The notes: generated by a model not told the origin, from the sequence alone. A DNA stretch of 64,000 nucleotides from Blasia pusilla (GCA_050084515.1 CM114271.1:45198001-45262000), one strand, 5' to 3'. Numbered from the stretch's first letter, positions 4,853 through 52,300 are shown. Program-made: numbers and translations.

Positions 4853-4853
4853 A

Positions 4854-6249: not shown

Positions 6250-8720
6250 CTGTCAATCATCATATGAATAGAATTCCCCGAGACTACTTTTAACAAGGCA
6301 ACATGTAATTGCCCATGAGAAAATACTGGATTTGGCAAGTAGATACCAACTCTCTCTAATGTTGGACCTGATACTTATTAATCTTCATTGCAAAAGCACG
6401 ATATTTAGGAAATTAAAATCGTCATAAATCACAATGTAAGCCGAAATCGGATGCAATCAATGGAATGTGTGGAATGAACACTCGAGCTCCAACTTTTTGT
6501 TTTCTTGTGAGAATTGTTGCATCTACAAGATGTCGACTAAAACCAACTATCACCAAGCAAATCCTGTTTGCTTGTCCCTTTGCTCCATTCATATTTCATA
6601 ATAGCATTATCAGAGCTCCAATCTTCAAAGTAAAAACATTAGGTGGAAATCTAGATGGTAACATGTGTTCAAAAAAATTATATTTGATCAACAAGCCTTA
6701 TCTCATTGTCAAAAATAGAATCGGCACTTAAGAAAGTATGCTCCTACAAAAAAAAATTCCAATCATAAACAATAAGAGAGATGATGGAAAAATATAGCAA
6801 TACACTTTTGAAAAATATAGTCATGATACTCAAAAACACAAATATTACCTCTCATGGAATTTGAGATATGCATGATTTCCGCATTTATACTATCCACACT
6901 AGTATTCTTGGTCGAAAACATCGATGTACCTCTCAAGAAATCAATGTCACTCTACTTATTAACATCGCGTCCATAAACAATGTCAATGAGATCATCGATC
7001 CTTGTGGTTTTAACAATTCTCGCATCCAAAACTTGTGTAAGATTCTCTACAAGGTCCAAATGTAATGGTATACAAACCCCTCCGACCTCTTATAACCACA
7101 TTGCAATAAATTATTGCTCTTCTTGTGCATATCCTACAAAAACATAAGATGAAGGAATAAGTACATATTAAAAAGAAACAAAAAGGCAAAATATTAGCTT
7201 TATTCTTTTATACATTGTAAAGTATTAACTCTCAAGTTGGAAGTGAGTTTCAATAATCTCACATTAGACCAAATAAGAGATCTCCTAAGTATTGCAGGCA
7301 CAAATGTGGAACGATATCCATGATGAACGACCAGAAGAAGTTGTCGAAAGTCAACACGAAATAAAATTATCTTTCTCCCAAAGGGCAAGTCTCGTAATCG
7401 ATGATCAATTAAACCCATGATACATTGGAAAGTACGATTAATGCCCTCAAATCCATGATGATGGGTCATAAGAGCTTCATTCCACACGATCAACTTTGAC
7501 TTTTGTATAAGGCATGCCACATGATCGTTGATCGATAAGCTAGAAAATAGATAACAACAAAACATATGAGGAACATTTATGAAGGATAAATCTAAGAAAA
7601 TAAGAATAACATGCATGCCATAATTATAAAGTAAAAGGAAAAAAATCTTAAATCTAAACTTACTCTTGCAAGTGGAACTTTCATGTACTTGGATAGGGAT
7701 CTTGTATCGAGAATGAGCGATACGACCTCCATCTAATAATAAGGCATCAATCCCCAAAGATCCAATTGCAAGAGCTATATTACCCTCGCTCCGTACCATA
7801 GCAAGAAGAAGGTTGTACAAAAAGGTTTTTCCCATTCCGCCAAAACCATCCATAAGAAAAGTTTTTCCTGAAAAATTATTATTCTTAGTTACAAAAAAGC
7901 ATTTTAAAATGAATAAGACTTAATTGATAATATATAATACATAATATTCACTTACAAAAGGTGGCGCATCTTGTAAGATATCGTCAAAAGAATTATAGAT
8001 AACATCCCAAATAGCTCATTATCCATCATTTAAAGAAATATCTCATGCTCTCAAACGTTCACGAAGCATATCATGATTGTAGGAAATTAAGCTTTTCGTC
8101 TTCTAGACACAAAATAGATAAATCACGAGTTTGGAAATTTGGTTGAGGTATGTCGGAGAAGTCCGCCTTACTTTTACCATGATATCGAAGATGGTAATAC
8201 ATCTCCAATAATGCAAGATTAATAATCTGAATATCAAATTGAAGATTTAGAATTCCAATTCTTTGTTATGAAGAGCAAATATAAAAGTTAAAACATAAAT
8301 AAAGAACATAACAAAAAAATCCTAAAATAAATAAGGAAAAATTGACTCAACAAAAGGCATGCATATTACCTTACATTTGATGTAGAAGATCTTATGTTAA
8401 TGGAACTAAAAAAGATTCCCATGCCATAACCGTAAAATAAGGTATGTTATATGGAATAGTGATTGCAAAGAGTAGACGTAATGAATAACCAGGACAAATG
8501 ACAACTGCCTCTTCAAAGCAAGAAAATATCCCTCTATCATCCTCCAAAAGTCCCATCTGAATAGCAGTCTCTTTGAAGGCTGGGGTTTTCAGTTCCACAA
8601 ATATGCCCCATCTCGTTCGACAAAGTAAAGGGTTTTTTAATTGCGTCTCTCGGAAGACTTATTGTGGAAGAACAATAGCGTTCAATTTATTCCATGGCGC
8701 TCTTAAAAGAACAATAGGGT
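6250..8720 (-). pseudogene. Helitron RepHel, Pif1-like helicase part, degenerate and intron-containing
   Basis: DGFGGMGKTFLYNLL (Walker A), LLLDGGRIAHSRYKIPI, LIVWNEALM, PFGRKIILFRVDFRQLL, and C-terminal ERVGIYLPNPVFSHGQLHVAL. AT-rich GT..AG spacers, e.g. ~7540-7663. Confidence 0.85.
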
Positions 8721-21687: not shown

Positions 21688-24179
21688 TACAACAAAAGTC
21701 GTCATCAATCAAGGTGATAATCGTTTAATCGCTGCCGATCGTGACCATGCGGAGGGTCAAGATAGTGACGATGGCTTCTCTCTCGATTCCTTGCTCCTCT
21801 CACAGGTTTTGCATCAAATTCCTCAAAACTTTCTTTCTTTGTTGACGGGACATGAGTTCGGTGGTTAATTCTACCCTGGAGTTCGTCTATGGCTTAACCA
21901 CATAGTGGATCTTTGTTTGTTATGAGGACTTTTGTTGCTCTAGCTCCGTCCTCTGTCGGAGGCTTTCAGTTTTGAGAGGGTTAGCTGTCGTCGGATATTT
22001 GGCAATATCCCGTTCGTTTCGACTTCCTTGCATTGGAGGGGAGTGGTTCATTAAACTAAGACCGATTTTCATGTGCTTTTGACAGTGGGAGGATCGCATG
22101 GTGAAGGGGCTTTTCCGATATGATGTTACTGCCTGCGAGACAAAGGTGACTGATCTACAAATCTCTTTGTATCCATACTTTGTGAAGTGTAAATGCTCAT
22201 TCGCTTCTGAAAGATCTGAGCAACCTAACCATCAGGATCACTTCTGAACTGGGACTGAAGGATGTTGCGAAATTCAGGAAGGTGGAGACTGCTGGTTGGT
22301 TGTTTTTTAACGCAATGGCTCTCCTCATAATGAAGTCTGCATTGCTTGGTTGTGTAGGTGTTGCCAGGTTCGTACGGATTTATTGCCCAGCTTAATGAGG
22401 GACGACACTCGAAGAAGCGCCCGACAGAATTTCGCGTAGATCAAGTCCTTCAGCCTTATGATCCCAAAAAGTTTAATTTTACAAAAGTCGATCAAGAAGA
22501 GCTGCTTTTCGCATTCGACGAGAACAACAACAGCGGCAGTGTCTACGTGGACGCAGAACTTGTCGGAGATAGTCCCAATGTGGTTGCAATCAATGTAAGT
22601 AGTGAACACCGAGGTTTCATATCTGTTCTGATCTCTATCTAGAAACTGTTGATGTGTAAAACTGCATCAGACATCTTCCACAGGTTTTGCTGCCATCCGT
22701 TCTAAATCCATTGTCCACCTCATCTACGCCAGATGATCTGACAGAGGTTTTCTTGAAATAACTCGCGTCCTGAGAATTTTCTTGGAGTTGGAAAACGTAT
22801 GTTATTCGGCATTGTGTGGCTTGTGCTCCTCATTCATAATAAGAAGCAGCAGTATACCTGATCCATCGATAATTCTATGCGAAATGCAGTTGGCATTGTG
22901 CCTGAAGTTTGTCAAAAAATTTTAGGTCTTAGATCTCGAACTCACCTTTCCACTTGTTCTAATCCAGCTTGTTCGTCTTGCAGGTGAGCCCCATTGAGTA
23001 TGGCCATGTTCTTCTAGTACCGCATGTCAGGTCTCAGTACCCACAGAGGATCTGTGCTGAAACGTTTTTATTGGCGCTCCACATGACTGTAGAAGTGAAT
23101 AATCCTTACTTCCGTCTTGGCTACAACAGTCTTGGCGCTTTTGCCACCATCAACCATCTTCACTATCAGGTATTGGAACTTGGATGAACTTGGAGAACTG
23201 CTCTGGTGGTGTTGCACATGAGTAGGTTTATTTTAGCTTCATCTTGTGGTTAGGTCTGCTTTCTGGTATTATCAATTATTTAGAACGTAGACACGAGTAT
23301 CCGTTAAGGATGCAAACTTACTAGTTGTCAAAATAATCTTTGTGCAGGCATATTACCTCAATGTTCCTTTTCCTATTGAGCGCGCTGAAACTAAAAAGAT
23401 AGCTCGCACCCGCCGGTCAGGAGGTTGTAAAATTTCCGAGCTAGTCAACTATCCAGTACGGACTGTGGTATACCAGGTTGGGGATAGCTTGAAAGAACTA
23501 GCAAATGTTGTGGCAAAGGCATGCATCGCCTTACAGGACGACAACATACCTTTTAATGTCCTCATTGCAGATTGTGGAGCACGTGTTTTCCTCATCCCTC
23601 AGGTGTGTGAACAGGTTCCTTCCAGCAACAGTTGATGATGTCAGCCTGTCATGGACGTTTGCAATAGTACTCGGCGAGTTGTTTCTTCTCGCTAGACAGT
23701 ATAATAGTTCTATGTCAGATTTGTCAGTTAGTGAGGACTTCAACCGTGTATTACTATGGCGTGAGAATTTCAGTAGTCTGCAGTTTCAATGGCAGGGGGC
23801 TAGACGTCTAATGACTGGCTCTTTGTATCTGCATCCGAAGTGTTATGCAGAGAAACAAGCCCGTGGAGAAGTGGATCAAACGATTCTTGACACGCAAGTC
23901 AATCCCGCAGTGTGGGAAATCAGTGGCCATATTGTCTTGAAACGTAGGGATGATTTTGACATTGCGTCTGAAGAGTATGCCAAAAGGCTTTTGGCGGAGG
24001 TGTCCCTGTCAGAGGAACGGTTCACGCAGGTGAAACAGATGTGCAAAGATGTTGGCGAATTTGACAGCTTGGATACACATGATGAGGGTCTAAAATCTGG
24101 GTACGCAGGGCGTGCAACAGTTAAAAATTTCAAGTTTGGTGCAGGTTGCCCAAACCTTTGTGACGATTGGGCTGTTTGA
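21174..24179 (+). CDS. VTC2: GDP-L-galactose phosphorylase (ascorbate biosynthesis), 7 coding exons: 21174-21249, 21651-21805, 22086-22145, 22358-22594, 22984-23169, 23348-23602, 23841-24179 (1308 nt, 435 aa)
   Basis: MLTIRRVPTMVS start, KLPLY, WEDRMVKGLFRYDVTACETK, GFIAQLNEGRHSKKRPTEFRVD, INVSPIEYGHVLL, HIT-type GYNSLGAFATINHLHYQ, QVNPAVWEISGH. All introns are GT..AG with compatible phases. VTC2 versus VTC5 orthology cannot be resolved. Confidence 0.95.
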
Positions 24180-25927
24180 ATCGAAAGTATCTCCCAGTTG
24201 TTAAACTGGAAGATTATTGTATCAAATGTAAAGAAAGTCAATATTTCTTACAAGCTGTGAATATCGCAGCAATTTCTATAATATACACTATTCCTTAATA
24301 CAGATCGTCTCGGAGCTGGTCTCTTATTCATTGCGATCGAGCATCGCCATGTATGCCGATGTGCGCACGCTCTAGTAACAATCGGTCATTAACGCAGCGC
24401 AGCAAACACTCTGAACATGCTTGTTGACAGGAAATTCTCACTCTCCACACTGAAGAAAAACTCGGATCGGTTGGATGTGTGGATAATACTCGTTTCACGA
24501 CCAATACTCTGTGAAAACGCGGAATGTAGACCATGGAGACCACCAGTCGTTACTAGTAGTTTTGCGGGCTAAGATACGATTGTGGAACAGGCAAAACTCT
24601 GACGAACTCTGCCTCGGAAGACATGCCCTCAGTTGTCGCCATCTTTGCAGGGGGTAAAATGCCGTCGGACTTCGTCTAAGCGGGAAGAGGCGAAAGAGTT
24701 TCGAACCGGAGTTCTCATCGTCGACGATAGCAACATGATCTACAGCGCGGCAGTCAACAGGACCTTGGAATGATAGTCAGAGTCGTGAAGTAAATACTAG
24801 TGAGGTCGGTTGAAGCTGCGAAAGTGGAAGAGTAGTCAAGGTCGGATCAGTGGAGCAAGGTGAATACTTGAAGGAATCTTCTGCATGTCATCCATCTATT
24901 CTCAAGAGAGGTATAGGAGTATGAATAGGAATGATTTAAAAGCAACCGTGGGTGCCCTTAGGGTTTAGGGTTCAGGTGCACTTCCATGGCTAAGGTGGAC
25001 GAGACGTTCACACTAGCGAAAAAAACTCCCTTCTACCTAAATGCTCTTCTTAGCTTCGTTGATGTTTGATCTTTGTACACCTCATGTGAACAAGCGCTCG
25101 CCAAAAGTCTTCTTCGATGTGGTTCAAGGCGACACTATGGGTTAATGTGCGGAATATTTTCTATCTTTAACTCAATACTTTGTGCATTGACCATATGATA
25201 AGGAATGAAAGGGTTTTCCATTATGCAATCCCATCTCCTTCATCTCGGATGTTCTTAAGTGGAAGGAATCACTTAAGAATAACCGAGTATAGATCTAATG
25301 GTGGTTGTTCACCTTTGCTACCTTAGTGTATTCTATTGATGAATATATTTCGTTCAAATATGGTAGCGCGGGCACATTTCAAATCTTTAGTTGTGGGAAA
25401 ACTCATAGACATTTTTTAATGTGAGTAGTTTTGCCAGCAATACCTTATGAGTAAAATGAAAGCATTCGTGTGCCATGTTTTATTGTTCTTTTTCCAAGTT
25501 GCCTATCCACGTATCTTCCAAATTTTTAAATCTGACTTGTTTTGGCAGCAATACCCGAGAAGTCGGAGGTATGTGGAAGAAAGTCAGTGAGCTTTTACTG
25601 AGACATAGGGAAATCATTAAGGCTCTTCCAAATACACCGTTCTTTTTCCTCTTTTCTCTCCATCTCACTATCCACACATGCTACAAATATTTTAGAATTC
25701 CTTTCTCCCCACCCCTCTCAAAGTGTTGCACGCTGTTTTACATATGTGTCAAACACTTGAAAAGTCTCATTTTAGGGAATGCATATGTAAGTTTAGCTCA
25801 CATGCATCATTAAAAATACATCTCCGCTCTGTATCAGGTCTCTATAAAGTCCTGGAACAAAACTATCGAGTTCCAAGGCACTCTACATGCGTCACCACTG
25901 AACAGGACCATGAACAATTGAGAAAAT

Positions 25928-26252
25928 CATGATCATTACTAATTGAACAAATGATAGGATGAAACTCAAAATACTCCATGGTTATGTGTTCATCCCACAA
26001 TAGTTACAACCATCCTGCATGGAGCGAGCCTCTATTTTACAATCATGTTAATTTCTTCCAAACACCTTGATTTTCACTTTAACTTGAACTCATGATCATT
26101 TCTACTTGAACAAACCATAGGACAAAGGTCAAAACACTTCATCATTATGTGTTCATCCCACAATGGTTACAACCATCTTGCATGGAGCGAGTCTCTATTT
26201 ACAATCATGTGAATATCTTCCAAACCCCTCAATTTTCACTTGAACTTGAACT
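25928..26252. repeat. Tandem duplication, ~163-bp unit x2
   Basis: Units start CATGATCATT at 25928 and 26091 and both end AACTTGAACT. Confidence 0.85.
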
Positions 26253-26604
26253 CTCATATGAATAAAAAACATTAAAAGCTCAACACGTGACCAACTAGCA
26301 TATGAAGCATGGCTATGTGTTGATCCAGTAGTGATCACGATGATCCCCTCTATAATTAATTTCCCTGTGTAGAATTTTAAATGATAATGAAAAACCCGCT
26401 AAATATCATCTCTGATTCATAAGACTCACAAGTATCCATCCATCATTGTATCACTAATGTTAACATTCGGAGGCCATAGGTGGATTGGTTAGCCAAAAAA
26501 TCTTTTTCTAGATAGTGATAGGCTACAACTTGATGGTATCAAATTGTGGGAGGAACTATGTGAGGCAAATCCAATAGTTCCATGTTTTAGACAGTTGAGA
26601 GCTT

Positions 26605-26740
26605 TGTTGTGCGCATACATATTGCTACACAACATACATCGCTGGTTACATCTACACCACACAACACCGATCTTCTCCATACACGGGTAGATCCACACAT
26701 GTACAGAAATCAACTCATTCATATATATGGAGATCACACA
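26605..26740 (-). repeat. Short TG..CA unit, distal copy (136 bp)
   Basis: Aligns with 27194-27312 (CCACACAACACCGATCTT, TAGATCCACACATGTA.AGAAATCAACTCAT, TGGAGATCA). Confidence 0.85.
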
Positions 26741-26742
26741 AC

Positions 26743-27191
26743 AAAAATAAAGAGTAGTAAAAACAACACACCCAGCCTAAAACTCCACTCCTCAATCTAC
26801 ATCGACATATCGAGCCTTGTCCACCCTGTGCTATCAAGGAATCCGGACGCTAGCACCCTAGTCCTATCTCACACACATACAAGAGAGGTGCTCCAATGGC
26901 CCAACATGAGAAAGATGGCTTGGGAAAACCATCTTCCTCCCTTATATAGGGTTGGGAAGAGCCAAAAGGCTCTTCCCCTAAAAATATCTATCCTCCTCGT
27001 AACCTGGTCAACAAGTCACCCAACTGTGAAAGACCTCAACAAGAAAATTGTCAAAAACGACCATCTTAACACAACGGACCTATCCTCAACATCATCCGAC
27101 ACCGTGGGATAAAGTTACACTCAAGACAGTCCGCTGGCTCCTAAGCCCTATCCACGATAGATCTCGGCCTATTGGCTACTCAGATGTGACA
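26743..27191 (-). repeat. 3' LTR copy (449 bp)
   Basis: Colinear with 37073-37555. Lacks the terminal 3 nt and has a 31-bp deletion between two GTAACCT microhomologies (483-3-31=449). Confidence 0.9.
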
Positions 27192-27193
27192 AC

Positions 27194-27312
27194 TGTCGTA
27201 CGCAAATATATCGCTACATAACATATTTCCACACAACACCGATCTTTCCCATACACGGATAGATCCACACATGTATAGAAATCAACTCATACATATACAT
27301 GGAGATCAAACA
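27194..27312 (-). repeat. Short TG..CA unit, proximal copy (119 bp), adjacent to the PPT
   Basis: Begins TGT and ends ACA; homologous to 26605-26740. Confidence 0.85.
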
Positions 27313-27314
27313 AC

Positions 27315-27323
27315 CGCCCCCCT
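27315..27323 (-). promoter_or_regulatory. Polypurine tract of the gypsy element
   Basis: Minus strand reads AGGGGGGCG, then GT, then TG; lies right after the end of pol. Confidence 0.7.
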
Positions 27324-27396
27324 AGCTGGCAGTTGGATCCCCCCAACTTCAGATAGAAAATGTCACATCTCTCTGACATGACCTACTATCCTATAC

Positions 27397-27540
27397 ACAT
27401 CTCGGACATATCCATCGTGTTGTGGGAACTACATTAAGAGGGGGGGGGGAGGGGTCAGATATGACATATGCCACCCTCGAGAACAACCATCACATACCAA
27501 CATGGTGGTTGCACCCCTCGCAGATCCGCACAACATATAC
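27397..27540 (-). pseudogene. PHD finger at the C-terminus of Pol
   Basis: YMLC..MLVCDGCSRGWHMSYLTPP, a frameshift in the poly-C run, then LNVVPTTRWICPRC. This is the C4HC3 pattern with two Cys mutated to Tyr. Confidence 0.85.
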
Positions 27541-27733
27541 CTCAAGCTTGCAGGTACCACTGCCAAGCTCGGATCCACTGTCCCGTCCACGTTTGGAAGA
27601 TGACATCGTGCACATGATCCTTCCAAACCACACCATCCCGTCCTTCCAACATGAGGACTCTGGTTGGTAATACCTCGCGCACACGTAGGATTGTATGCCC
27701 TGCAGTGACATCTAGCGTCGTGGTTGCCGCTTG

Positions 27734-28654
27734 CTATAAATACACGTATTCTCGAGGATGAAACCTCTTAATCCTTGGACGATAACCTCCTCCACGAATG
27801 GTCGCGTACCTCAATGTATCTCTATGTTGAGCAATAGCTAAGCTCTCAAAGACCATAGGCATAACTCTACGAAAAATCTCGGCCCTCTGTGAACACGCTT
27901 GTACCCACACATTTGGATCATCAAGATCTAACACCTTTGCCATGTCACATTGAATAGCTGCATGTAAATCTGGCTCTCTCCCAAAGAGCGAAAAGTACGG
28001 AGAAAATGACGCCAAGGATGCCTGCCGACTAAAGCGATAACCCATGAGGTCCCACTCCCTCAACTGTCCTCGCTTCAAGCCATACTTGTGCAATCCTCTC
28101 TTCAGCGTCTGTACTACTCTCTCCGCCAACCCATCCGCGTGAGGATGATCTTTGGACGTGGTGCGGTGATCTATCCGTGCGTGATCACACAAGGCCTGAA
28201 ACTCTCCCCTGAACTCGGTACCCTGGTCAGTCAACACCTCCGCCGGTGCACCAAAGTGACTAAGCACATGATCTAGAAAGGCATAAGTTGTTCCCTCGCT
28301 CGCCTTGTGTGGAAGTGCCACCAACTCTACCCACGGGGAGAAATGCTCCACCATGACCAACACGTACCTATGATGACGCCCCGTCAAAAGCAAAGGTCCC
28401 GCAAAGTCTAAACTCCACCAAAAACCTAAACCCATAATCGGAAAAGGATGTTACTGCGGAGTGGGAGCATTGAAGGATGCTCGTACTCTGTCACATACCA
28501 TACATCTGTCCACAAATTGTTGTACCCGAGTATGCATGCCGTGCCACCAATACTGAACATAGAGAAAGCTGTAAGTACGCTTTACTCCAAAATGCCCCAA
28601 CTCCTCATGGGTATGTCGCACTACACGTGCTTGCTGGGAAGGATGAGGTACCAC
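27734..28654 (-). pseudogene. Retroviral-type integrase (HHCC zinc finger plus DDE core)
   Basis: HEELGHFG..CMVC, WSLDFAGP, VLTDQGTEF, HPHADGLAERVVQTLK. Confidence 0.95.
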
Positions 28655-28989
28655 TCGTATCCAAACATCTCCCTATACCCACAAAATATGCGTCCCCTCC
28701 CACCTGAACCTCATGGCTCTCTATAGGATCCAATCCCGCTGCATAGCACTCACTGTGCTCGCTATGATGCTAGTGCGCAAGAACTCCACAACCTCCACAT
28801 CGTCATGGATATCACGACCACATGTCGCCTCCTCACTAACCTCTAGATCCAAAGACTCATCATCCAACCCCACCACTAGAGTCATCACCTGCGACTGACC
28901 TACCATAGTCAACCAACAAAGATAGGCAGATGCATGCCAACCGGGCACTATCTTCTCATCACTCTCTCTATGCCATCGAGCTCCTCTGT

Positions 28990-30400
28990 CATTTCTCTGA
29001 CTCGGACATGGGTTATGACTCAACCCATCCGCATCCTGGTTCAGCCGACCTGGCCTATGAACCACCACAAACTCATACTCATGTAGTAATATAGCCCACT
29101 TGGCAAGCTTTCCCGTAAGCTTTTCGGACTCCATCAACCACCTCAACGGCTGATGATCAGTTATAAGTGTGAAAGGGTTGCCGAATAAATAGCACCTAAA
29201 ATGTGCCACAACCCACACTGTAGCCAAGCACTCTCCCTTATACGAGTTGTACTTCGGCTCTCCATGTTGTTCGATTGGCTCGCATAAGCCACAACAAACT
29301 CCCTCTCCTCGTCATTCCTCTAAGTAAGCACAGCTCCTAGAACCAACATGCTCCAATCCGTATGTAACTAGAATGGGCGACCCCTAACCGGTCTTTGTAA
29401 AATGGGTGAGGATGTCAACCTGTCCTTGAGCTCTTGAAATACTCGCTCTTGATTATCTCCCCTGATCAAGTCCCGTCAACAAGTTCAAAGACTTTGCAAT
29501 CGCACTTAAAGCTGTGACATATCATCAATAGAAGTTTTCCGTCCAAGAAATGCTCGGACTCGACTTACATCTCTGTAGGGCATGGAATCTGCATAATAGC
29601 CTCCACCTTCATCCGTTGAACGCCTAACCCACTCGTGTATATGGTGAGTCCCAAATACTCAATCTGCTCCTGAAAACATCTACACTTGCCTGGATGTAAC
29701 TTCAGTCCATGTAACTCCAATCGCCAAAACACCTCCTCCAGGTGTCGCTCATTCTCCTCAACCGTGGAACTGAAGATAAGAATATAATCTATGTAACATC
29801 GTACAAAATCCAAGCCAGCCAGAATCATTCCATCACTCTCTAAAACTCCGCAGGCGCGTTCTTCAACCCAAATGGTAAGAACTGCCACTTATACAAGCAA
29901 TCTCTCCCAAACCGGTCTATCCCCTAGAATGTTGTCTTCCCTGTGTCCTCCAACTTGATAGGAAGCTGATGATAGCGAGCACTGAGATTTAAAGTACTGA
30001 AGATCTTTCCAGGCCCTACCGCATGAAAGATCTCCTCAAGAGTAGGCATGGCGTACCGATCTGACCTCGTCTGTTGGTTGATAGGAGAGTAATCTCCACA
30101 CATCCGCCTATCTGTCCAATTGCCATACATATCCTTCTTCACCGGCATGACAGTGGCAGATGCATACTCCCCATGTGATAACTCCACAAGTCCTGCCTCC
30201 AACAAGTCCAGACTCTTGCTCTGAATCAAGGCTCGCTCCATATCACAATACCTGTAGGGTCGACGAAAGATTGGCGTATCACATGCCAACTCAATCCGTA
30301 TCCCGAGACCCTTTAGCATATCCAAGTCTCTCATACTGAAGGCAAAACAACTGACATGCCCTCTCACAAACCTATGAACTCGCTGTTGCTGTCTTCCTAT
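28990..30400 (-). pseudogene. Reverse transcriptase and RNase H (gypsy type)
   Basis: RMCGDYSPIN..DRYAMP, YIDY (YIDD mutated), KLHPGKC, LHTDWS, FTLITDHQPL, NQDADGLS. Confidence 0.95.
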
Positions 30401-30739
30401 CAACTTGAGACCTATCATAGGCCTCCAAGTCTCCATCGTGACCTCACTCGGAGAGGACGCAACCTTCGGCTTTGGTTGCTATGCAGCAATCCTAGTCACC
30501 TCCGCAACAACCACTCCACTCTGACCTCCTTCCCCATGCTCCACATCCAAAAAATGAACATGTGCCGCTCTGGCCTCCTTCGCACTCTCCGCTCGAACGA
30601 CATCCCGGGAAGTCTATGGGTGCCTATCTCTCCTCGTCTCGCCCCAAGCCAATGCCTGTATAGATCCTGTAGGCAATGGTACAACGCATGGACGTAACGT
30701 CATGCATGACACTCGCATCCGTATCTACTCAACCATACC

Positions 30740-31685
30740 TAGGCTGACTATCCATGTGAGACAGTTGAGTTCCATCGCTTGCCCCAAAACCTCTCTTCGG
30801 AATGCCTCAGTTATACCTGGCATCGCCGTAATACCCGTAGCAAAACCCATGGCGCGCTCATCTGATGTAGGCTCCTCGGATGCTCAGGTCACATCATCCT
30901 AAATCATACCTGGTCCTCCTTGACGAAAGGCATGGGATGCTAGGAAGGTCACCAACATAGGTAAGGCTGCCCTCAACTCCCCTACCCTATTGGCCATCGC
31001 CAACGGTGGTCTATCATCCCGCGTCACCACCTGAGATCGACGACCTGAGCCCAAAATAGCATCTAGTGTGAGATGTGGTGCTCTCTGGACTCCATCGTAT
31101 GCTGGACTCAGTACCTCTGATGGTATCAGGTTCATCCACCATAGTTGTAGACGATGGGCCCGTGATCCAACTCTCCCTGTATCTAACAACACAGTAGGTC
31201 CCAACCAAGATCTCACTTTATGCACACTCGTCATCACACGTGCATGAGTGTCTCCCAACAACGGCACGTTCTCCAAAATATACGCCGGAGAACAAGTCTG
31301 ACTCTCCTGCAAGTGTCATACTACTTGCAGCATCTCCCAAAACATCCCTGACCTCGGATTGTGCAATCCAAACCCTCAGCCAACTAATGAATGACCCTGA
31401 CATGGCCATCCAACAATCACCAAATGAATGGTGCCAACTCTATCTAGATCTTGCGCCCCCACCAAAGACATGTCGGTGGATAGTGTATGTTGATATCCCC
31501 ATACAACAGATACCGGCAACAACTCAGGATACCTCTGGACCAATCTCGCTACGTGATGTAATGATACTCTCTGCACGGTCTTATCTCTCTCCACATAAAG
31601 GTACTCATGCATCTGTACGCCCGCATGCAATACCGCTGCCAATCCTGTGCTAATCCCTCCGAAGAGATCTAACACCCTAACACCC
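30740..31685 (-). pseudogene. C5-cytosine DNA methyltransferase domain inside Pol
   Basis: One frame with in-frame stops only: motif I VLDLFGGI (~31654-84), YLYVE, IV GWPCQG (PCQ 31397-405), V GLHNPRSGMFWE, VI YILENV (ENV 31265-73), VIII SRAHRLQLWW, IX ERAMGF, X LGQAMELN. Confidence 0.92.
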
Positions 31686-32023
31686 TCCTTTGGACACTGC
31701 CATACAACGGGTGTGGTATCTACTGGGGTCAACGTTTCCACTTGAGGGGCCTGACCACCACATGACTCTCGCTGCTCCGGGATAAAGGCATGACTCCACG
31801 CCTGCCTCACAAGGTCGTCGGCGCTCCTCTGTAGCTTTCGAGTCGTACCCCACAATGGAGAAGAGGTCTCACCATTTCCCTCCCACAACTCTCCTCGCCA
31901 GCTAACACTACTTGTGAAAGCTGCCAACGTGGTCATAGACTCGTCTTGTGATCGACCTCTTCATCCCGCAAACTGCATGGGTAGTTGACTCATCCGGCCG
32001 TGTCGATAAGCAAAGGTCTCTTC

Positions 32024-32400
32024 CTAGAAGTCAAGGATGAATCCTAGGGGATATAACAGTGTACTCCCCACCAACACATCGTACGACTCAGCTAGTGTCG
32101 TAATCGCACGTGTGCGCACCATAGCACTATCCGTCGCATGCTCTCGCTGGACTCTATCAACAATTTCCTGTCGAGTCATATACTGCGTGGGTGACACACC
32201 CCCAATCGAGTACTGTATTTGGAAGGGACAAGGCTCAATGTCGGCCTTCCGTAACCCCAACGCTAAACACGCCGCCTTCCCTAACATCAAGGGCTGCGCT
32301 CCCAAATCAAGTAGGACGCGCTGGGGGTGGTATATTGTCCCCGTCGGACTAACCAAGCGAAATACTCCAGCTTGATTATCCAATTTCACTACTCTAGGTG
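32024..32400 (-). pseudogene. Retropepsin-like aspartic protease
   Basis: RVLLDLGAQPLM (D[ST]G altered to DLG) and YDVLVG; same frame as the DNMT. Confidence 0.8.
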
Positions 32401-32999
32401 TCACCACTTCTCGCTCTATGACCAGATGAGTTGGCATATCTACCAACTTTGCCGCCGCCGCATGCCATGACTATATGGGGGACGTCCCGAGCACCGGCTC
32501 TGAGGGCAAGTCCACCATCTCCTCAACTTCCTCTGAACAAGAAGCACTCATCTCTCCATGCTCACACGACATGGCGGCCAACCGGAATACCTCAGTTGGT
32601 CCAACTCCCAACTTTGCCAACTCTATGGCGGAAAATAGCGGAGTCTGGCTCACTCTGGTGCCCTACTCCAACACTATGGTCGACATTGACTCCACTCGAG
32701 CCAACATAGGAGTTGTCACTCCGAATTATCGTGATGTCGATGTACCTGCATGACCTGTAGGCACCGCGGGCCGTCGAGGCACCATCGATGGTGTATGTAG
32801 TGCCTCCGACAATAAGAATGACTCTGGAACCCTGGTCTACCACCCATCGGTCCCCTCTGATGGCTCAATCTCAACTCCACCTCTGGATGGCTCAGTGCGT
32901 CTCGCAACACCCCGAGTCACCATTGCAGCCGCCTCAACCTGAGATGCACTGCACATAAACCCCATACTCGTAAGATCCTCACCCGGATGAGGATATGAG

Positions 33000-34510
33000 G
33001 TAGAAGGTGGAGCCACACTAGCTGCTTGCTACTCCGTGCCTTCCTTGAGCTGTATCATTGTCATGGCAGAAATCTTCTGCTCCAAGTGATCGATGCGTGA
33101 GAGAAGTTCCGGCTCTGGTGCTCTTGCTCCATCTCCTTTGGCTCGTGGTGGTCCTCTACCACCATGTCCAAGAAGAACTCCCCGACCTCCTCCAAGACGA
33201 CCGCCCCCAGGCCCTCGGCCTACCTCTGGACATGCCTCTCGACGAAGGTCAAAACATCTATCCCTAGTGTGACCATATCTGAGGCAATAGTCACACTGGT
33301 ACTATGGTGGGGCCATCCTCTATGGCTCCTGAGAAATCTGAGGCGCTCGTGGTCCTCTCCCATGTTGTGTGTAGTCTCTCTGCCTATAGGTCCCTCCACA
33401 CGTCCAACACGACAACATCGATCCCTGTTGGGCAATATATGTTGGTACGCGTCGTTGCCTCATAGGCTCACGATACCCGCCCTGCTCTCTGGGCACACTT
33501 GCCCGCTCCCATGGTACGGGTGCTCGCTGTGGCACATGTGGGGTCATCGTCGCTCGTGGGCCCGTCGACCCTCAAGAAAATCCAACGGTCACTACCTACT
33601 CCTCACTCATGTTGAGCTTAATACGCTCAGACAACTCAAACACCACCTTCAATGCGGGCTTCGCTGTGTGAATCAGCACCGTATCTTGGACTCTCCTCCG
33701 TAGTTCTCGATCCAGAACCCTATACCAAAACAGGACTGACTGCGCTTCAGTCACTCCAAACGTAGCAATGATCAGCCTTCTCATATGCATGAATGCCTCT
33801 CTCAGACTCTCACCCAATCGTCGCTAAAAATCGTGTAGACTCTTCAGCTTGTCGGTGCGTATACCTTGGTAGCTCTTCCCCAACAGTCGGAAGAACTCCA
33901 CTGTGGGACTAAAGTTGGGTGGCCCTCTACCACCGGAGGTCTCTGCCACATCGCCTGTCTCACTGCCCTCCTCTCCACCTAGTCTCCGGGCTGATGATGT
34001 GGGTCTCTCTCCTCTCAAAATCCCATCATATGCCTCGCCTGCACTAGTGGATACATACCCTAGAGCCCAATACATCCTCCAAGCATCGATCTTTAGTGAA
34101 TATAGTGATTGAAACTCTATGTAGTCATCCATCGGAGGACCCTCCACGTGCTAGAACAACCCCTTCCATGCCATGAAAGGGTTGAACGTGTCGGGGTCAG
34201 TATCTCTTGGAAGTTGCACCATGTGTCAAACTCATGGATAAAATCATCTAAGTCCATGGTGCCCACTACACCCAAGAAATGATGCATGCCCCGATAGCCC
34301 ATGTCATCCATCTCCTACCAAGTGATATTGCCTTCTTGTACGATCTCATCACCAAACCCGGTGTCTAGAGATGACGATCCAACCACGGATGTATGTCTTG
34401 GTAGCTCCTCACTCGTAACCCTCGATATCTCACTCCACTCCGTTGTCGTGTTCAGAGCTTTTCTTCGAGTAAGGGCAGACCTTCTAACTGCGGCAGACGT
34501 GGTCGATGCA
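33000..34510 (-). pseudogene. Gag (capsid plus degenerate CCHC knuckle), frameshifted
   Basis: DLDDFIHEFDTWC, GESLREAF, and CWTCGGTYRQRDY (degenerate Cx2Cx4Hx4C); lies between the leader and the protease. Confidence 0.7.
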
Positions 34511-34701
34511 AGGTGAACCCTCTAAGAAGTTCTCCTTTTTCAATACAAAATTATTATGTATACTCTTCATTCTCTCACGACAAGTATCACAAATGGAAGT
34601 GCCGAGGCGATCACTTCTTTGTAACATCGGACCCAAAAATTTCTAACTATAAAATCCCTATAAACTACTTAACTTATACACGAGGAAGATATCATAACTG
34701 G

Positions 34702-35699
34702 TGTTAAACCCTACTTGAGCAGGCCTATTGACGTCCATGAATTGCTATATAAGGACATACAAAGTACAATCCAATGTCCTTCCATATATGACAATTGGAA
34801 AGATGACCAGAGTTGGAGATTGAATGACCTGGTTCATGAACGTCTCCCCAAAGTGATAAACTAAATAGCGAGTGAACTAGTGCCTATTTACAAAGAGTAT
34901 CTTGACATGGTATGGATAGAGGAAAGGAAAGTCGGGCACAACTCGTGCTCCACCCTATCCATGCTTGATGGAAATTCTCTACTCTCCTCAAGAATGGTTT
35001 TGGTCTCTTATTTCTTCCAAGAGGGGTAATCCACTCTCATTGGGAAATTAACATGTGAAAAAATTCACTATTTTAGTATGACTAAACTCCTCTAAGGTGA
35101 CAAACCTCTCATCTCCACACACACACACCACACTATAGAAACCTCTCGAAGAATGGACCATGATGAAGTTACTCTCCCAAGAGGGGTGATCCACTCTCAT
35201 TGGAAGAGCAAGCAATCCCAAAGCCATACACTTCAGAGTGACACGAGAAACTCAAGATGTGGAATAGAAGGTGATGAACCCTTGAAGATCCCTCCTCTTT
35301 CTATACTCACAAGAGATCCACAAAAGTACAAAATAGAGCTAATCTTATCTTGTGCCACATGGCTTCCTCTCAAGGCTTAGCCAATCACATTTTGACACAA
35401 GCAGATTTCCTTTTATTTCTTCCAAAATATCCTCTTTTCCCCACTTGATATTTTCCAAATTACCCCAACTAACCTAGCCACCAACCAAGCCTACTTTTTC
35501 TTTTCATTAAAGCACCAACCTTACTACTTTACTTTTATAAAGTCATCTTTTATTTATTACCTCGTTTCCTAAAGTTGGGTCCGCATAAAAGAGGCACCAC
35601 ATATTCCTAAGGTTTAAATATGGGAATTTCCTTTTCCTAAGCTAATTTTCCTAATACTTATAAAATTCTATTTAACACTTAACGAGGAAAGAGTTTACA
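34702..35699. mobile_element. Probable nested solo-LTR-like insertion (~1 kb) upstream of gag
   Basis: Starts TGTTAAAC and ends GTTTACA. ACTGG occurs on both sides (34697-34701 and 35701-35705, with one extra C). AT-richer than the host element. 34513-34700 may be a related fragment. Confidence 0.5.
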
Positions 35700-37061
35700 C
35701 ACTGGCTGATTTTACTATACGACACCGTGTCACACCACTACTACTGCTCACACTACACCGTTCTTGCGAACCCTGGAAGAACGCCGTGATGACAACCCTG
35801 TCTTATCGGCTCAAGCACTCAGACTCACCGAGAGTCTCCCACAGTCCTCACTAGCTCACCTATGCTAACGTCAATCACGTGATGACACACCCAACCTCAC
35901 GCACACTCAACACTCATGCTCACCATGAGCCTTCCACTAACTCACCTAACCTACAGACACCCTCGGGTCATACATGCGACCCCAACTCGGCAACCATCGT
36001 AGATCCACCAACATGCTACACATGAAAAGAGTCTACACTTGTCACCATCAGTGCACCCACCTAGCACTAGCTAGTACTCGATACCCATCACTCTCAATCA
36101 CATAAGATAAGTGCGGGAAAAAGGGACTCGAATGGGTAACCTGATCACGCCCTCCAACCTACTGCAACGTCAATACTCACTCCTCCATATGGTATGGCAA
36201 TCCCTGCAACACAACACTCTCCTCAACCAACACGTTGAACCTCCCGTCAGCATCGGTCTGTATGCCTCAATCAGAATCCCCGCAAACCCCAACCATGCTT
36301 GAAAAAGATCTTGTCCTAAAAAATCTCTCCGCCCACTCCCAGACGCGCTTCGCAACCTCAACTCAACCCCGTCCAAACGCAACCCTGCCCATCTATGACG
36401 ACACCCGCACCTCTACTAAGTCCGCCCTGCCTCCTACGTGAGCCTTGACTTCGACCACATCCGTGCCTACCACATCCACTCTATCAACCACGTTCTGCTT
36501 TCTACTACTGAGTCTACTACATTGGGACGTCGCCAACCATGGCGCTCCCAACCACATCATGGAGGGGGGCCAAAATGGCCCGTGTCCCTATGGGGATTAA
36601 ATGCGGGGGTGGGGGGTGCTGCGACCCTGGCTTCCTTCGTCTGCCGTAGCTCGCGCCGCCCTAAACCCTAAAACGCGTCTGTTCCGACTCCGGCTTGCAG
36701 CCACCTATGACCTAGCTGCGCCTAGCCCTAGCCGCGCCTAGCCCTAGCAGCCCTTGCAAACCTAGCCCCCTGGCGCCTACAAGACCTGAAAGGCTAAACT
36801 TCTCTCTCTTTCCCGACATGCGCCACTCACCCGCCAACATTACACTCCGTGCTACACCCGAGTGCCCTTGCCGGTACACCGCTACTGCCATACACCAGTC
36901 GGCTACCCAAAAAAATCAGGGAAAAATGAGCAGCGCTTCCGTGCACGACCTCCCAAACTTGAAAGACGAAAATACAACCGCCAATAAGCGTCTCCAAGGG
37001 CTTCTGACCGAGGCAACCCGCTTGCCTACCTGCAAAGAATGAATTCCCACCACGCCCTTGA

Positions 37062-37072
37062 CATCTTTCTCA
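37062..37072 (-). promoter_or_regulatory. Primer-binding site, self-priming type (TGAGAAAGATG)
   Basis: Immediately follows the LTR-terminal CA. Does not start with TGG. Exact complement of LTR positions 37250-37240. Confidence 0.8.
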
Positions 37073-37555
37073 TGTAAAAATAAAGAACAGTAAAAATGGC
37101 ACTCCCGGCCTAAAACTCCACTCCTCAATCTACATCGGCATATCAAGCCTCGTCCACCGTGCGCTATCAAGGAATCCGGACGCTAGCACCCTAGTCCTAT
37201 CTCAAACACATACAAGAGAGGTGCTCCAACGGCCCAACATGAGAAAGATGGCTTGGGAAAGCCATCTTCCTCCCTTATATAGGGTTGGGAAGAGCCAAAA
37301 GGCTCTTCCCCTTAAAATAGCTATCCTCCTAGTAACCTACGTGCACATGTTACCAGGGACGGGTAACCTGGTCAACAAGTCATCCGGCTGTGAAAGACCT
37401 CAACAAGAAAATTGTCAGAAATGACGTTCCTAACACAACGGATCTATCCTCAACCTCATTTGACATGGTGGGACAAAGTTACACTCTAGATAATCCACTG
37501 GCTGCTAAGCCCTATCCACGATAGATCTCGGCCTATCGACTACTCAGATGTCACA
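37073..37555 (-). repeat. 5' LTR (483 bp)
   Basis: TGT...ACA bounded; matches 4370-4852 and 26743-27191. Confidence 0.9.
37275..37281 (-). promoter_or_regulatory. LTR TATA box (TATATAA)
   Basis: Conserved in all three LTR copies; first T lies 31 nt upstream of the PBS-complementary sequence. Confidence 0.7.
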
Positions 37556-38993
37556 ACTTTCATAATAAAAGAAACTATGTTGATCTAGGACTAAACTCTG
37601 TGAATAAGTGTTACAATGTCAAGCTCTTGCGAAGTTGTTGAAATCATGTCACATTTTGGACCCCTCATAATCACGTCTACTCAACTCGCTTGGAATGAAG
37701 GAAAGGGAAACTGATGAAGAGCCCTGCTTCTTCCCCACTTCATATACACAATTTCTCATAAATAATTTTTGAGAATGTTAGGCGAACCATCCCAAAAATA
37801 TTAGTACTGTGAGGTTCATTACTTAATTTTAAGGGATGTTGGTGGTAATTGATGACATGGTGGATGTTGGTCAAATCTTCAACTTTGTGGAGTCCATGCC
37901 GCCTAAGTTGAAAAAGAAATTGAGGGAGAAGAGTATATTGATCGTAACAAGTTTTGGGAAGCTCGAGGCAACCATTGATATGGCGACTCAACTAGTGGCA
38001 AGTGAGCCTAGTCTTGACAATAGAGGCAACATAGTCCTAATCTTGAAGGCAAGAGGATCATTTGGTGGGATGAACAAGAGGAACTTGGAAGAGACAAGGT
38101 GCCAACTTTCAAGAGGTTCAAAACTCAAGAAATGAGTATTCTATCTGTTGGCAACCAAAATTTATAACATCTGCCCCTTAAGATTTGGGACATGTGTGCT
38201 TGAAGTGACCCAAATCTCTACGTATCTAACACCTTTTGGCTCCACTCAATCGAGGTCATCCCTTCCTTGGAAATCAATGCTTGCTAAGGTTTGAATATTA
38301 CTTTTCTAAAGGGAGGGCGTAGGCCATGTAAGAATATCTTAAAACTAAGCGTTCAATGGGATAGATCATGAACCTTTGGGAAACTAGTTGAAAAAAGGTG
38401 AAAAACCTTCAGATGTTATACTTATGTATTCTAGTGAATGTAAATTTGTGATTGAGGTATTGATTACAAGAAAAATTGGCATGGCTTTCATTAAGAAAGG
38501 AGCGCTTTGCAACTTCCTAGATTCTAAGGTGGTGGTGAGGCTAGAAGCACATGTCATCAACATGCAACAACCCTAAGATGTAATCTATGCAAACGAACAC
38601 TCAAAATCCACCTCAACCTAGGCATTGAACATCAAGATGGTGATTCCAAAAAAGAAAATAAAGTTTAGTGCTAGGTTCCAAGATACCCATATACATCTTC
38701 TTCTTCACGAGCTCCATCAATAACTTAATAAACCTTGGGATCACATCTCATGGCATTAGTATGGGTTTCATCTCCCAAGACACATGTAGAACTGTGAAGA
38801 TAACTATTGATGCCACCACCCTCATAGATATTTACACAAGTTAACCCCCCTTCCTTCAAATTCAAGGCTTCTGGGGAAATCACCCAACTATGTTTATTTT
38901 AATGCAATAAAAAATAACGCATCACAAAAGATATTGAACATCTTTGTTAGAAAATAAAAGGTGTTTGTTTTATCCACATTCCCTTAATTATAA

Positions 38994-49112: not shown

Positions 49113-49162
49113 AGTTGGGAATTCCATGCTAAGACCTGAAGTATAGAAGAGTCTTTTCAAAT

Positions 49163-49301
<139 letters not shown>

Positions 49302-52300
49302 ATGATATTTTCCAATGTTGACTTTAAAAAGCGATCACTTAGCTCATTCCCTACATACTCCCAACCCTCATCCATCTCCCTTCTTATAGTTCTGATGTCA
49401 AACTCAAATTTCTTAGCCACATCACGTGTACTAAGGTCCAAACATGGAAGGGCACAAACCTTCAATTTATCATGCCATGCAGTCTTTCTGACATAACCGG
49501 ATATGATTTCACCTAAAGATGTAACTTCAACTCTTGGTTTTAAACCTCTCTTGATAAGAGACTTTGTAGTTTTCTTCCATTGTCTAAGGCTTTCCCAACG
49601 AAGATGTCGAGCTTTAGAGCTTGGTGTAACATCATTACCAATTTGAAGTGAAACATTCACGAAGCGTTCTAAAATAAGGAGAGGGACCAATTGCATCAAA
49701 CGATAGAGTTGCATATGTACTCGTTTAAAGTCTGATTGAATATAAGACATACTTACCACTTGGAGGATTAAGACCTCTAGGATGGTGTCTGGGAGACTTC
49801 TTGTTGTTTACTGTTGTGGGCAGCTCCTGTGATAGATTTGAGATGCCATGAGTGGCCCCATTCCATAGTATGGATTTGGTGGATAATAGGAACCAAGATC
49901 TCTTATGAATGACATACAATAAAAAAGCATACAGTGATAATAATCATTAGATCACTAGAAGCTTATAATATTAAAATAACTATAAATAGTGATCTTCCAC
50001 ATACCTGGCGGGACAGACCATTGTGGAAATCTTGGATATGGAGGTATGGACCATTTTTTGGCTTGTGGCATGATGTAGGAAACATCTCCAACCATAGGTG
50101 GCACCTCCTAGTAAGGCGACCGGATATTCAACATCAACGAAGGTGGTTTAAAATAAAAATGACATGTTCAACTCCTAGTAATATACTACATGGAAGTGAT
50201 GTTATCTAATAAATAAATAATCACAAAAGAATATTTTCAAACATTTTCACTCAAAGATGTTAGTACCAGATTGTAAGTTCATCTTTTGTCGATTCAATTT
50301 GGCTCGCTTCTTTACAGGATGTGGTGATGGCACTTTGGATGGTGATTTGCCTACACGAGGTAGTTTTTATGATGGCGACTTAGAGGATTCCTTATCAATT
50401 GTCACATCAAACTCACCATTTGATTCGAATAGGTCATATGAATACTCCTCTGATTGATCAATTGATTCATCCATGGTCTCCTCTAGACTACGTTGTCGAG
50501 TGTGATATTTCTTTGAAGGGATTGAAGATCCTACTCGCTCACTACTCAAATTTCTTGGAAGTTGAACTTTAGGATCTAGACTTGGGATTGCTTCCATGTA
50601 AACAATGTGAAATATTCATGTCAATAACAAGTTCAGCCCACATTGCAATATCAGAAAAAATAAATTTTGACGATACATACAGATAAAATATGAGAAAAAA
50701 CATACATGGTTCCAATAAGCACTTCAACACATGCAAGGGTTACCAAAGGTGTGGAAGCATACCATTCAAAAGTATATGCTAGTAGAACAAACATTGATTC
50801 TTCTCCATAACTTTATCAAGAAAAAAAACTAGACCACTAATCGGAACTTCTTGCCGAGTTCTAATGTTCACTCCCTCACAAGTTTGCATTGCTCCTCCCT
50901 AGCACGATAGTATTCAAGGTCCTCACATGTAGGACCATCTTCTTTGATAGTACCACATTCCAGATTGTTAGACATGCTATTTCCCCAAGTGTTGCTCCAC
51001 TATACGGTGTGCTATAGTGGAGTTGAAGGTTCTCTTCCAACGAAAGATCTTCATCGAGACGGATGGAGAATCCATGATAACTAAGGAATAGTGATAATGG
51101 GAAATCACATAACCAGATGGGTAAGAGACTACATGTGAGCATATTAGTTAAGGTGCTAACATTGAATATTTGAAACTCGCTCAATCTTACAATATTTAGT
51201 TACACTACATTAGCTCTTTCAACATGTTTTCAAGCTTTAGAGCCTATGAAAGCAATATGGTCCGCCATTTCCTTTCAATAAATTTTAATTAAAATAGAAT
51301 CTATTTCTATCTTCTCATATAACAAGAAGATAGAAATACAATCAAAGTTGCAATATGAAGTTTGATCACTTTCTGGTTTAGTCGTTAGACTCATCGTCTG
51401 ACATTACATTAGAAGAAATCCCTTGTTTGATGACTAGGTTATATAACTCATATGAGTCGTATATTACATACCACAACTAATATTTACTAAAGACTACTCT
51501 AGACACAAAAGTCGAGTCATATTTGTCCGGAAATTGGGGTAACTAAGATAGCCGGCTTAGCTGGACATCGGTTCGTGACTAGAGGGTGTAGTCATAAGTC
51601 CATGACTGACACGTCACCTTGACGACATGGAATAATGACACATCAACATATGATGTGGAATAATTGGTGTGGCATGGACTATGGAATACAACTCGTGTAG
51701 TCATATACTGGGTATCAAACTAGTTATCACCAATGACTATTCGAGTCATGTTTAGTCATAAAAATATACACAATACTCAATGATAATGTGAGAGGTGTAT
51801 CTCGTGAACATGGAATACACTTGGCGGTAATAGTCATGTCTCCACGAGTCATTAAATTTTTGGATTATGTCGTCCTTAGCAACTCATGTTATCCTTTCTA
51901 TTTTTTCGCATCCCGCGGAGACTCATGTAGACACGTTTAGTCACTCGCCGAGAAGTTGCGCATGACTAGAGTAGAAGGCCCTACAATTTGTGTAGACACA
52001 ATGATACGACTATGGAAGTTGTAGGCAAGAGCAAATGGGTCATATAATCATTGCAATATGACTGAATGAGTCATTCTTAGTGACTAGGTAGGAATGGAAG
52101 CTCACTGTGCCAGTAATATTAATATGATTGGTAGTGAATGTAGATTTCAATTTCGGAGTTTTTGATGAGTTTATAAATGTCTTCTAGAAGATCTTCCAAT
52201 TATGATTGGATCTTAATTACTTAAATCCAGGTTTCCATTGTTGTTGGAATGCAATACAAAAGTTCTGAAGTTTCTTAAGCTCTACTTTTTTGTGTTCTGA

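Follow-up and report, generated by a model that had tools for sequence, protein, structure and literature searches.

The 64,000-nucleotide stretch of DNA analysed here (CM114271.1:45198001-45262000), referred to throughout as the window, carries on its minus strand a Ty3/gypsy retrotransposon of 10,951 bp (26605..37555) whose Pol frame contains a cytosine-5 DNA methyltransferase (DNMT) domain. The ends of the element, 5'-TGTGAC...ACAACA-3', were read from the sequence. Reads of the host species were placed on the window at 85% likeness, most family copies being 85-95% like the window copy; loose read ends are numerous at 26604/26605, and DNA depth changes from about 0.4x to 700-1250x at the element limits. 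The flanks, AAAGT and AAGCT, match at three of five positions, with no clean target-site duplication. The element is organized as gag-protease (PR)-DNMT, a conserved in-frame TAG, and then reverse transcriptase (RT)-RNase H (RH)-integrase (INT)-PHD finger, all in one frame. We consider it very probable that the element, an old and now dead copy, belongs to a gypsy family that has a DNMT3-like domain as a regular part, that is, a bryophyte Gypsy-DNMT3 element.

All parts of the element lie on the minus strand. It begins with a terminal repeat similar to a long terminal repeat (A1, 486 bp, 37070..37555), which has a TATA-like box and contains TATATAAG, and a leader of 2.7 kb lies between A1 and gag. 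The gag gene (33029..34314), recognized from its translation, encodes a CCHC knuckle; it is decayed, with stops and one frameshift near its start, and is colinear with gag-PR-DNMT proteins of Marchantia such as P0003. The aspartic protease region (32024..32470) was placed by blastp colinearity with the related proteins P0008, P0006 and P0003; it reads LLDLGAQ where relatives read LLDSGAQ, and a Pfam scan of its open reading frame (ORF) returned no match. Between the protease and the RT is the DNMT region (30479-32023), which includes a DNMT3-type C5 cytosine methyltransferase domain (30689..31738; PF00145) of 350 codons with five stops and no frameshift. The region closes with the conserved TAG (30479..30481, context TAG CAA CCA), which ends ORF1, encoding gag-PR-DNMT. 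The RT (29565..30478; PF00078, E 3.9e-10 on 29565-29888) has stops and two frameshifts, and is followed by RNase H (28721..29311; PF17917, E 3.5e-18) and by the integrase (27734..28672), which comprises a zinc-binding part, with an HHCC-like stretch within the ORF at 28451-28672, and a DDE core (PF00665, E 7.2e-14 on 27734-28450). A complete PHD finger, split by a frameshift, lies 3' of the integrase (27394..27530; PF00628, E 7e-4). It scores 20 bits, under the cut-off of 24, with its second half (WICPRC) in another frame, and matches by eye the integrase C-terminal PHD finger of P0019, which passes PF00628, as does P0106. The 3' end is formed by a short internal repeat (B1, 122 nt, 27193..27314), an internal copy of the terminal repeat (A2, 447 nt, 26745..27191) and a short terminal repeat (B2, 140 nt including a 17-nt insertion, 26605..26744), which ends ...ACAACA; B1 was aligned with B2, and A2 with A1. 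The matches to PF00078, PF17917 and PF00665 in PR-RT-RH-INT order, with an integrase of the DDE type, place the element in Ty3/gypsy. The protease, DNMT, first RT piece, RNase H and integrase share one minus-strand frame, in which the protease (32024-32470), two DNMT pieces (31376-31960 and 30899-31315) and the RT (29924-30478) are open.

The separate ORF pieces of the DNMT gave no Pfam match to PF00145. When translated through its stops, the region passed the cut-off of 22 bits with a score of 26.8 (E 4e-6), the match spanning only motifs IV-VI; the DNMT ORF of an intact relative, the metagenome locus L002, reached 49 bits. The closest PDB sequences to the window read-through protein are DNMT3A catalytic domains (E 8.5e-6). 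In the alignment to DNMT3A we found, in order, motif I (LFGGISTGL), motif IV (GWPCQG), motif VI (ENV), motif VIII (SRAHRLQLWWMNL) and motif X. The codons of the predicted catalytic Cys and Glu are intact, as read in the window and in the alignment, and the motif VIII RxR, like PCQ and ENV, is conserved in the window's clade. Thus, the preliminary description, which had reported ordered DNMT motifs in a frame common to protease, DNMT and RT, had called both catalytic residues intact and had proposed the PF00145 search on the stop-repaired frame, proved correct on each of these points.

A family profile built from five sequences (profile A2) was run against the PDB and matched DNMT3A best (2.4e-18), followed by DNMT3C (1.3e-15), DNMT3B (2.3e-15), plant DRM (2.4e-8), M.HaeIII (1.9e-6), DNMT2 (1.7e-5) and M.HhaI (2e-4); DNMT1 was not found at E<=0.01. 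An AlphaFold model of the intact L002 domain, made with 21 sequences, had a pLDDT of 92.6, while a model from five sequences (pLDDT 55.3) was left unused. Among the Foldseek matches listed for the L002 model (ranks 1-50), all are DNMT3A/B/C chains, the best at E 5e-21, with target-normalised TM values of 0.79-0.84 against isolated catalytic-domain chains. The match of the predicted fold to DNA-bound DNMT3A/B extends over 326-336 columns and takes in the part that follows motif VIII. A search of the ESM Atlas returned only 'Streptophyta' and phage DNA methylase clusters. By sequence and by modelled fold, the domain is closest to DNMT3A/B/C. It shares with the mammalian DNMT3A/3B/3C the same I-X motif order and gives its best sequence and fold matches to them, but the identity is only about 20-21%, and the window domain sits within a retroelement polyprotein without PWWP or ADD, for which Pfam gave no match in the window pieces or in the L002 ORF1. 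It is a DNMT3-like catalytic domain only. The circularly permuted motif order of DRM is absent, as the motifs run from I to X, and DRM matches only profile positions 15-145.

The window copy itself is dead. Its pol frame holds 25 stops (13 TAG, 10 TGA and 2 TAA), and frameshifts interrupt RT (two), gag (one) and the PHD finger (one). Read through with X, positions 30479-32023 contain eight stops (4 TGA, 4 TAG and no TAA), four of them within 30740-31685 and five within the 350-codon domain; the domain has no frameshift, because a single tblastn segment covers it whole. In intact relatives the five domain stops align with H/R/T/E, R/A/K, W/I/Y, H/Q/G and Q/H, and they fit CGA>TGA, TGG>TAG and CAG>TAG transitions. 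The DNA reads of the family have C at 298 places where the window has T and G at 223 where it has A (521 in total), against 98 and 78 places (176 in total) for the reverse changes. We therefore conclude that the window copy decayed mainly by C-to-T and G-to-A changes. The stops had been explained from the outset as decay of this kind, and for the five domain stops the excess of 521 over 176 places agrees with that; the explanation does not extend to the TAG at 30479-30481, which is conserved in the family.

The same domain occurs in many other sequences. A protein search limited to 869-2765 aa returned 18 proteins, namely 14 from Marchantia polymorpha, one each from Sphagnum fallax and Closterium, and two others; the M. 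polymorpha matches are annotated as 'hypothetical proteins' and are 52-68% identical to the window DNMT. A profile search of longer proteins gave 104 matches, adding Calypogeia fissa, Haematococcus lacustris and Monoraphidium neglectum, and the sole cellular DNMT3 among them is a fish DNMT3B (E 3e-10). When 1.84 billion representatives were searched with the profile, 476 clusters were recovered at E<=1e-30; one of ten cluster look-ups named an organism, Closterium sp. NIES-68. Metagenome contigs contributed 77 related loci, including L002, a near-intact element of the window type with 2163 codons in one frame interrupted by two TAG only. Dozens of PF00145 'hypothetical proteins' in bryophyte annotations are transposon genes and should not be counted as host DNMTs.

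Within the host species, DNA depth is 700-1250x over the element (790-1020x in the DNMT bins and 990-1240x over RT-INT) and about 0.4x in the single-copy flanks. This corresponds to roughly a thousand or more family copies, a rough figure in which the flank depth rests on few reads. Together with the 18 and 104 protein matches and the 476 clusters, this depth bears out the expectation that the DNMT would not be private to the window copy. The family also gives sense-strand RNA, with stranded RNA reads on the sense strand of the element at 1.7-9.7x in the DNMT bins and 17-31x over RT-INT. We calculated the ratio of nonsynonymous to synonymous substitution (dN/dS) for the DNMT domain by the Nei-Gojobori method. 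In comparisons among the window, L002 and the L001 group it is 0.12-0.22, a rough value with dS saturated at 1.5-3.0 between lineages, which indicates purifying selection on the DNMT between lineages.

One part of the leader varies within the family. A 1.3-kb segment (34440..35725) is missing from part of the family, as seen in DNA-read joints from 34439-34441 to 35725-35728 (about 340 reads) and from 34421 to 35725 (a further 52). The RNA depth of this segment, 27-135x, is the element's maximum, and unrelated sequence lies beyond loose ends at 35599 and 35724. The segment could represent either a nested repeat or a transcribed piece that was captured.

Next to the window arrangement, the relatives show a second placement of the DNMT. 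Sorted by domain order, the 244 retrieved proteins comprise 62 with (gag-)PR-DNMT-RT, 132 with RT-RH-DNMT-INT(-PHD) and 50 with the DNMT only. A FastTree phylogeny was built from the 206 domains that cover at least 280 of the 352 profile positions (39 of 245 were left out) and was rooted on the single fish DNMT3B. Clade 1 (55 tips, support 0.90) unites 48 window-type and 7 unassigned tips. Closterium and the liverworts fall in it, as does the window, which is sister to the Marchantia/Calypogeia group. Clade 2 (151 tips, support 0.78) unites 123 tips of the RT-RH-DNMT-INT type with 28 unassigned ones and holds Haematococcus. The two placements are not mixed across the two clades. Either one capture plus a move or two captures would fit this single-outgroup tree.

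The RT-RH-DNMT-INT-PHD relatives (P0019; Haematococcus P0076) resemble the window element in the DNMT (33-42% identity), in the integrase (36-43%) and in having a C-terminal PHD finger, but their DNMT follows RNase H and precedes the integrase, within a single long ORF. In such relatives (P0019, P0020) and in Closterium, GWECQ replaces GWPCQ in motif IV, so that Glu stands for the Pro of the catalytic Pro-Cys pair. The RT-RH-DNMT-INT-PHD order is present in 59 of the 244 proteins, so the combination of DNMT and PHD finger, which the preliminary description had put forward together with self-priming as the possible mark of a lineage, is common. A chromatin-reader module at the integrase C-terminus is also found in chromoviruses, likewise gypsy elements; in the window element, in contrast, the reader is a PHD finger and not a chromodomain, and a writer of DNA methylation is added.

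The repeats of the element are split. A1 stands alone at the 5' end, while the 3' end has the order B1, A2, B2. A1 and A2 are direct repeats with TG...CA outer ends, yet B1 and B2 flank A2; both B repeats end in ...ACA, and B1 adjoins the start of A2, TGTCAC. B1 and B2 share an 86-nt core that is 92% identical. A1 and A2 are 90.8% identical over 447 aligned bases (Kimura two-parameter distance 0.099), and because of this divergence we regard the insertion in the window as old. The full A1...B1-A2-B2 pattern recurs in locus L041 (1328-1627 and 11785-12353), and pairs of the B type, 360-498 nt apart, are present in four of the five loci examined, with none in L021. PAT/Ngaro elements have a comparable 'split direct repeat' layout, A1-B1-A2-B2, described in the part of PMC4157794 at hand, in which the internal repeats likewise lie 3' of the coding region. 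They differ in using a tyrosine recombinase, whereas the window element combines an integrase of the DDE type with TG...CA ends. The tyrosine recombinase that characterizes the DIRS order is thus replaced here by an rve integrase core. We also considered whether joints running back from 37555 to 26605 (about 130 DNA reads) represent tandem or circular forms, and rejected them as such, since reads of the B1-A2 junction from other copies look identical when placed on B2.

A third copy of repeat A, with about 170 nt of adjoining leader, lies at 4205-4864 of the window and is 85.6% identical to 36907-37567. The rest of the element is absent there, and this is a fragment of another family member. 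The sense strand of these sequences is rich in G and T, the plus strand showing a GC skew of -0.18 to -0.26 at 26000-38000 and 4000-6000.

A gypsy element with a DNMT3 in its Pol has been described from the charophyte Klebsormidium nitens, for which self-methylation of the cDNA was proposed (de Mendoza et al. 2018, PMC5890265; here and below, statements from this source refer to the portion of its text at hand). Later texts, as far as the passages available from them go, speak of 'streptophytes (Gypsy-DNMT3)' (bioRxiv 10.64898/2026.05.21.726589) and of DNMT3s within retrotransposons 'in streptophytes and dinoflagellates' (PMC12344493). The K. nitens element, KnitGypsy-Dnmt3, has a non-rearranged DNMT3-type domain with conserved key residues in a gypsy Pol frame and, according to the legend of Fig. 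4, combines DIRS-type repeats with gypsy domains (PMC5890265); the A1...B1-A2-B2 layout of the window element corresponds to this. Its Ka/Ks is below 0.2 (PMC5890265), and our between-lineage values for three lineages agree with this. The two elements differ in host and abundance, since KnitGypsy-Dnmt3 was found in few copies in a charophyte (PMC5890265) whereas the window family numbers a thousand or more in a liverwort-like land plant. They also differ in the PHD finger, a term with 0 occurrences in the main text of PMC5890265. None of the retrieved relatives is a K. nitens protein, and the likeness to KnitGypsy-Dnmt3 rests on its published description. Retrotransposon-encoded DNMTs under purifying selection are also described in Symbiodinium, in SymbioDIRS-Dnmt3, which methylates CG de novo in yeast, and in SymbioLINE-Dnmt (PMC5890265). 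Unlike the window element with its DDE integrase (PF00665), these have DIRS (tyrosine recombinase) or LINE backbones and represent independent acquisitions.

Because the window element fits this published kind, DIRS-like split repeats included, we regard it as a further case of Gypsy-DNMT3; the undescribed lineage suggested in the preliminary description is not upheld (PMC5890265). Related sequences from Marchantia, Calypogeia, Sphagnum and Closterium already stand in public databases as hypothetical proteins. DNMT-bearing gypsy elements of Marchantia or other land plants are not described in the literature searched, although the supplements of PMC5890265 and PMC12344493 may show bryophyte copies; the main text of the REXdb survey contains none of the words 'methyltransferase', 'Marchantia' and 'PHD'. 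What the present analysis adds is the land-plant host, the high copy number, the PHD finger, two DNMT placements that each belong to one clade, and the conserved stop by which the DNMT falls within ORF1.

The stop between DNMT and RT occupies the same codon in all 17 extracted junctions (the window and 16 loci), as TAG in 12 and TAA in five, with the consensus GCR TAG/TAA CAA CCN. One of the two TAGs of L002 is at the codon of the window TAG. The gag-PR-DNMT proteins of Marchantia, and those of many unlinked contigs, terminate 50-177 residues past the domain, and gene models that run on into RT skip the stop site. The leaky-stop consensus of plant viruses is UAG CAR YYA, according to the text of PMC2754532 at hand, and the window TAG CAA CCA fits it. 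Since ORF1 and ORF2 also share their frame, programmed readthrough is the simplest reading, and the sequences suggest stop-codon readthrough at the conserved TAG. A pseudoknot-type signal 3' of the stop was considered as well and set aside, as the weak consensus fold gives it no support. The portion of PMC5890265 at hand and the other literature searched contain no mention of a conserved stop or of a dosage logic for the DNMT.

Our model suggests that Gag-PR-DNMT would be the main translation product and that RT-RH-INT-PHD would arise solely from ribosomes that do not terminate at the conserved UAG. From its position in ORF1, ahead of a leaky UAG, the DNMT would be produced in Gag-like amounts and packed in the particle as a Gag fusion, and the protease could then free it there. 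More speculatively, the DNMT might methylate cDNA newly made from the element, or the newly inserted copy, and the PHD finger of the integrase might meanwhile select insertion sites by reading histone tails; we consider this last pair of activities conceivable, though the odds are somewhat against it. Taken as a whole, the picture of an amplified and transcribed bryophyte gypsy lineage that writes and reads chromatin, with a particle-packed DNMT, a leaky UAG, a histone-reading PHD finger and self-marking with 5-methylcytosine (5mC), is put forward tentatively, as a possibility we would not yet favour.

Several observations weigh against our overall interpretation of the element. At the stop, four divergent loci (L057, L058, L059 and L062; 26-28% identity) have no stop at the aligned column, in L011 a TAG TAG is displaced from it, 12 of the 17 junctions read CAA CCC and do not match CAR YYA exactly, and the RNA fold 3' of the stop is weak (-13.0 kcal/mol, covariation term -1.35, 6 of 27 pairs compensatory). 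RNA over gag-PR-DNMT is 3-10 times lower than over RT-INT, and RNA reads placed at 85% likeness are not assignable to individual copies. The window copy, with the stops and frameshifts given above, cannot make any protein, and the intact copies found are relatives from elsewhere, with none from the host itself, whose assembly was not searched. Besides the saturated dS between lineages, dN/dS is 0.41-1.03 among the decayed close copies L001-L009. Finally, the K. nitens DNMT domain produced no detectable methylation in yeast, a result its authors called inconclusive (PMC5890265).

The most serious alternative is that RT-RH-INT is made without readthrough, by splicing, by reinitiation or from a separate transcript. 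Ogre elements use splicing. The 3-10 times greater RNA depth over RT-INT would be expected in this case, the gene predictions for P0006, P0008 and P0012 have introns spanning the stop, and the 12 inexact contexts point the same way. However, ORF1 and ORF2 are in one frame in the window and in 17 loci with a single tblastn segment across the junction (20 rows), L020 and L004 being single segments as well; the CAA CC after the stop is conserved, as is the stop itself; and none among the RNA joints listed crosses 30479-30481. Hence, we hold this alternative to be unlikely, while giving it real weight, and keep programmed readthrough as the preferred reading.

A second alternative accepts that the domain is kept but denies that it is a DNA methyltransferase. 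It might act as a non-catalytic, DNMT3L-like partner, recruiting or blocking the DNMTs of the host, or it might modify the RNA of the element as an RNA m5C enzyme. The negative yeast result with KnitGypsy-Dnmt3 would be consistent with this, as would the ECQ in place of PCQ in motif IV of the RT-RH-DNMT-INT architecture. On the other side, human DNMT3B likewise failed in the same yeast assay (PMC5890265), the window's clade retains PCQ, ENV and the motif VIII RxR, and the modelled fold follows DNA-bound DNMT3A/B over the 326-336 columns noted above. We regard a role other than DNA methylation as improbable, a little more so than expression without readthrough, and prefer a de novo-type DNA methyltransferase. 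That the DNMT is a chance chimera, with a fragment of a host DNMT3 captured by this single copy or with the element inserted into a DNMT gene of the host, might be suspected from the decay of the copy and the lack of Pfam matches for its separate ORF pieces, but this is extremely improbable given the same domain in the same place in 62 of the 244 proteins and in 16 metagenome loci, a DNMT read depth that matches that of gag and PR, the between-lineage dN/dS of 0.12-0.22, and Pfam scans that found no PWWP or ADD of a host DNMT3 nearby.

Cytosine methylation is the main route by which plants silence transposons. The usual roles would be reversed here, because an abundant land-plant retrotransposon encodes its own de novo-type methyltransferase. 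If the proposal is true, land-plant methylomes could gain de novo methyltransferase activity from the thousand-plus copies, and the conserved stop suggests a dosage logic of much DNMT and little RT and integrase. In liverworts such as Marchantia, which serve as laboratory models, methylomes have been mapped and DNMT3 genetics is available, and for this reason the 2018 proposal of cDNA self-methylation becomes testable in a tractable plant.

Outside the element, the window holds the 3' part of an expressed gene for GDP-L-galactose phosphorylase (GGP/VTC2-like) on the plus strand (22500-24180). Its three GT..AG introns (22594/22984, 23166/23345 and 23600/23839) are confirmed by RNA joints, and its RNA depth is 60-170x, on the strand opposite to the element. 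The last exon (23841-24176) is closest to the GGP of M. polymorpha (65% identity over its full length, E 8e-36), with Riccia sorocarpa next. The host is thus a land plant, as first supposed, and probably a liverwort other than M. polymorpha. On the minus strand, a decayed ORF similar to PIF1 helicase (7200-7919, perhaps to about 13000; PF05970, E 2e-44) is probably part of a Helitron-like element. A plus-strand ORF with a zf-C17orf113 zinc finger (1301-1921; PF25431, E 4e-14) probably represents a hAT-like gene of transposase origin. A long (GA/CT)n microsatellite occupies 49140-49500, and the open frames across it read poly-(LS) or poly-(ER).

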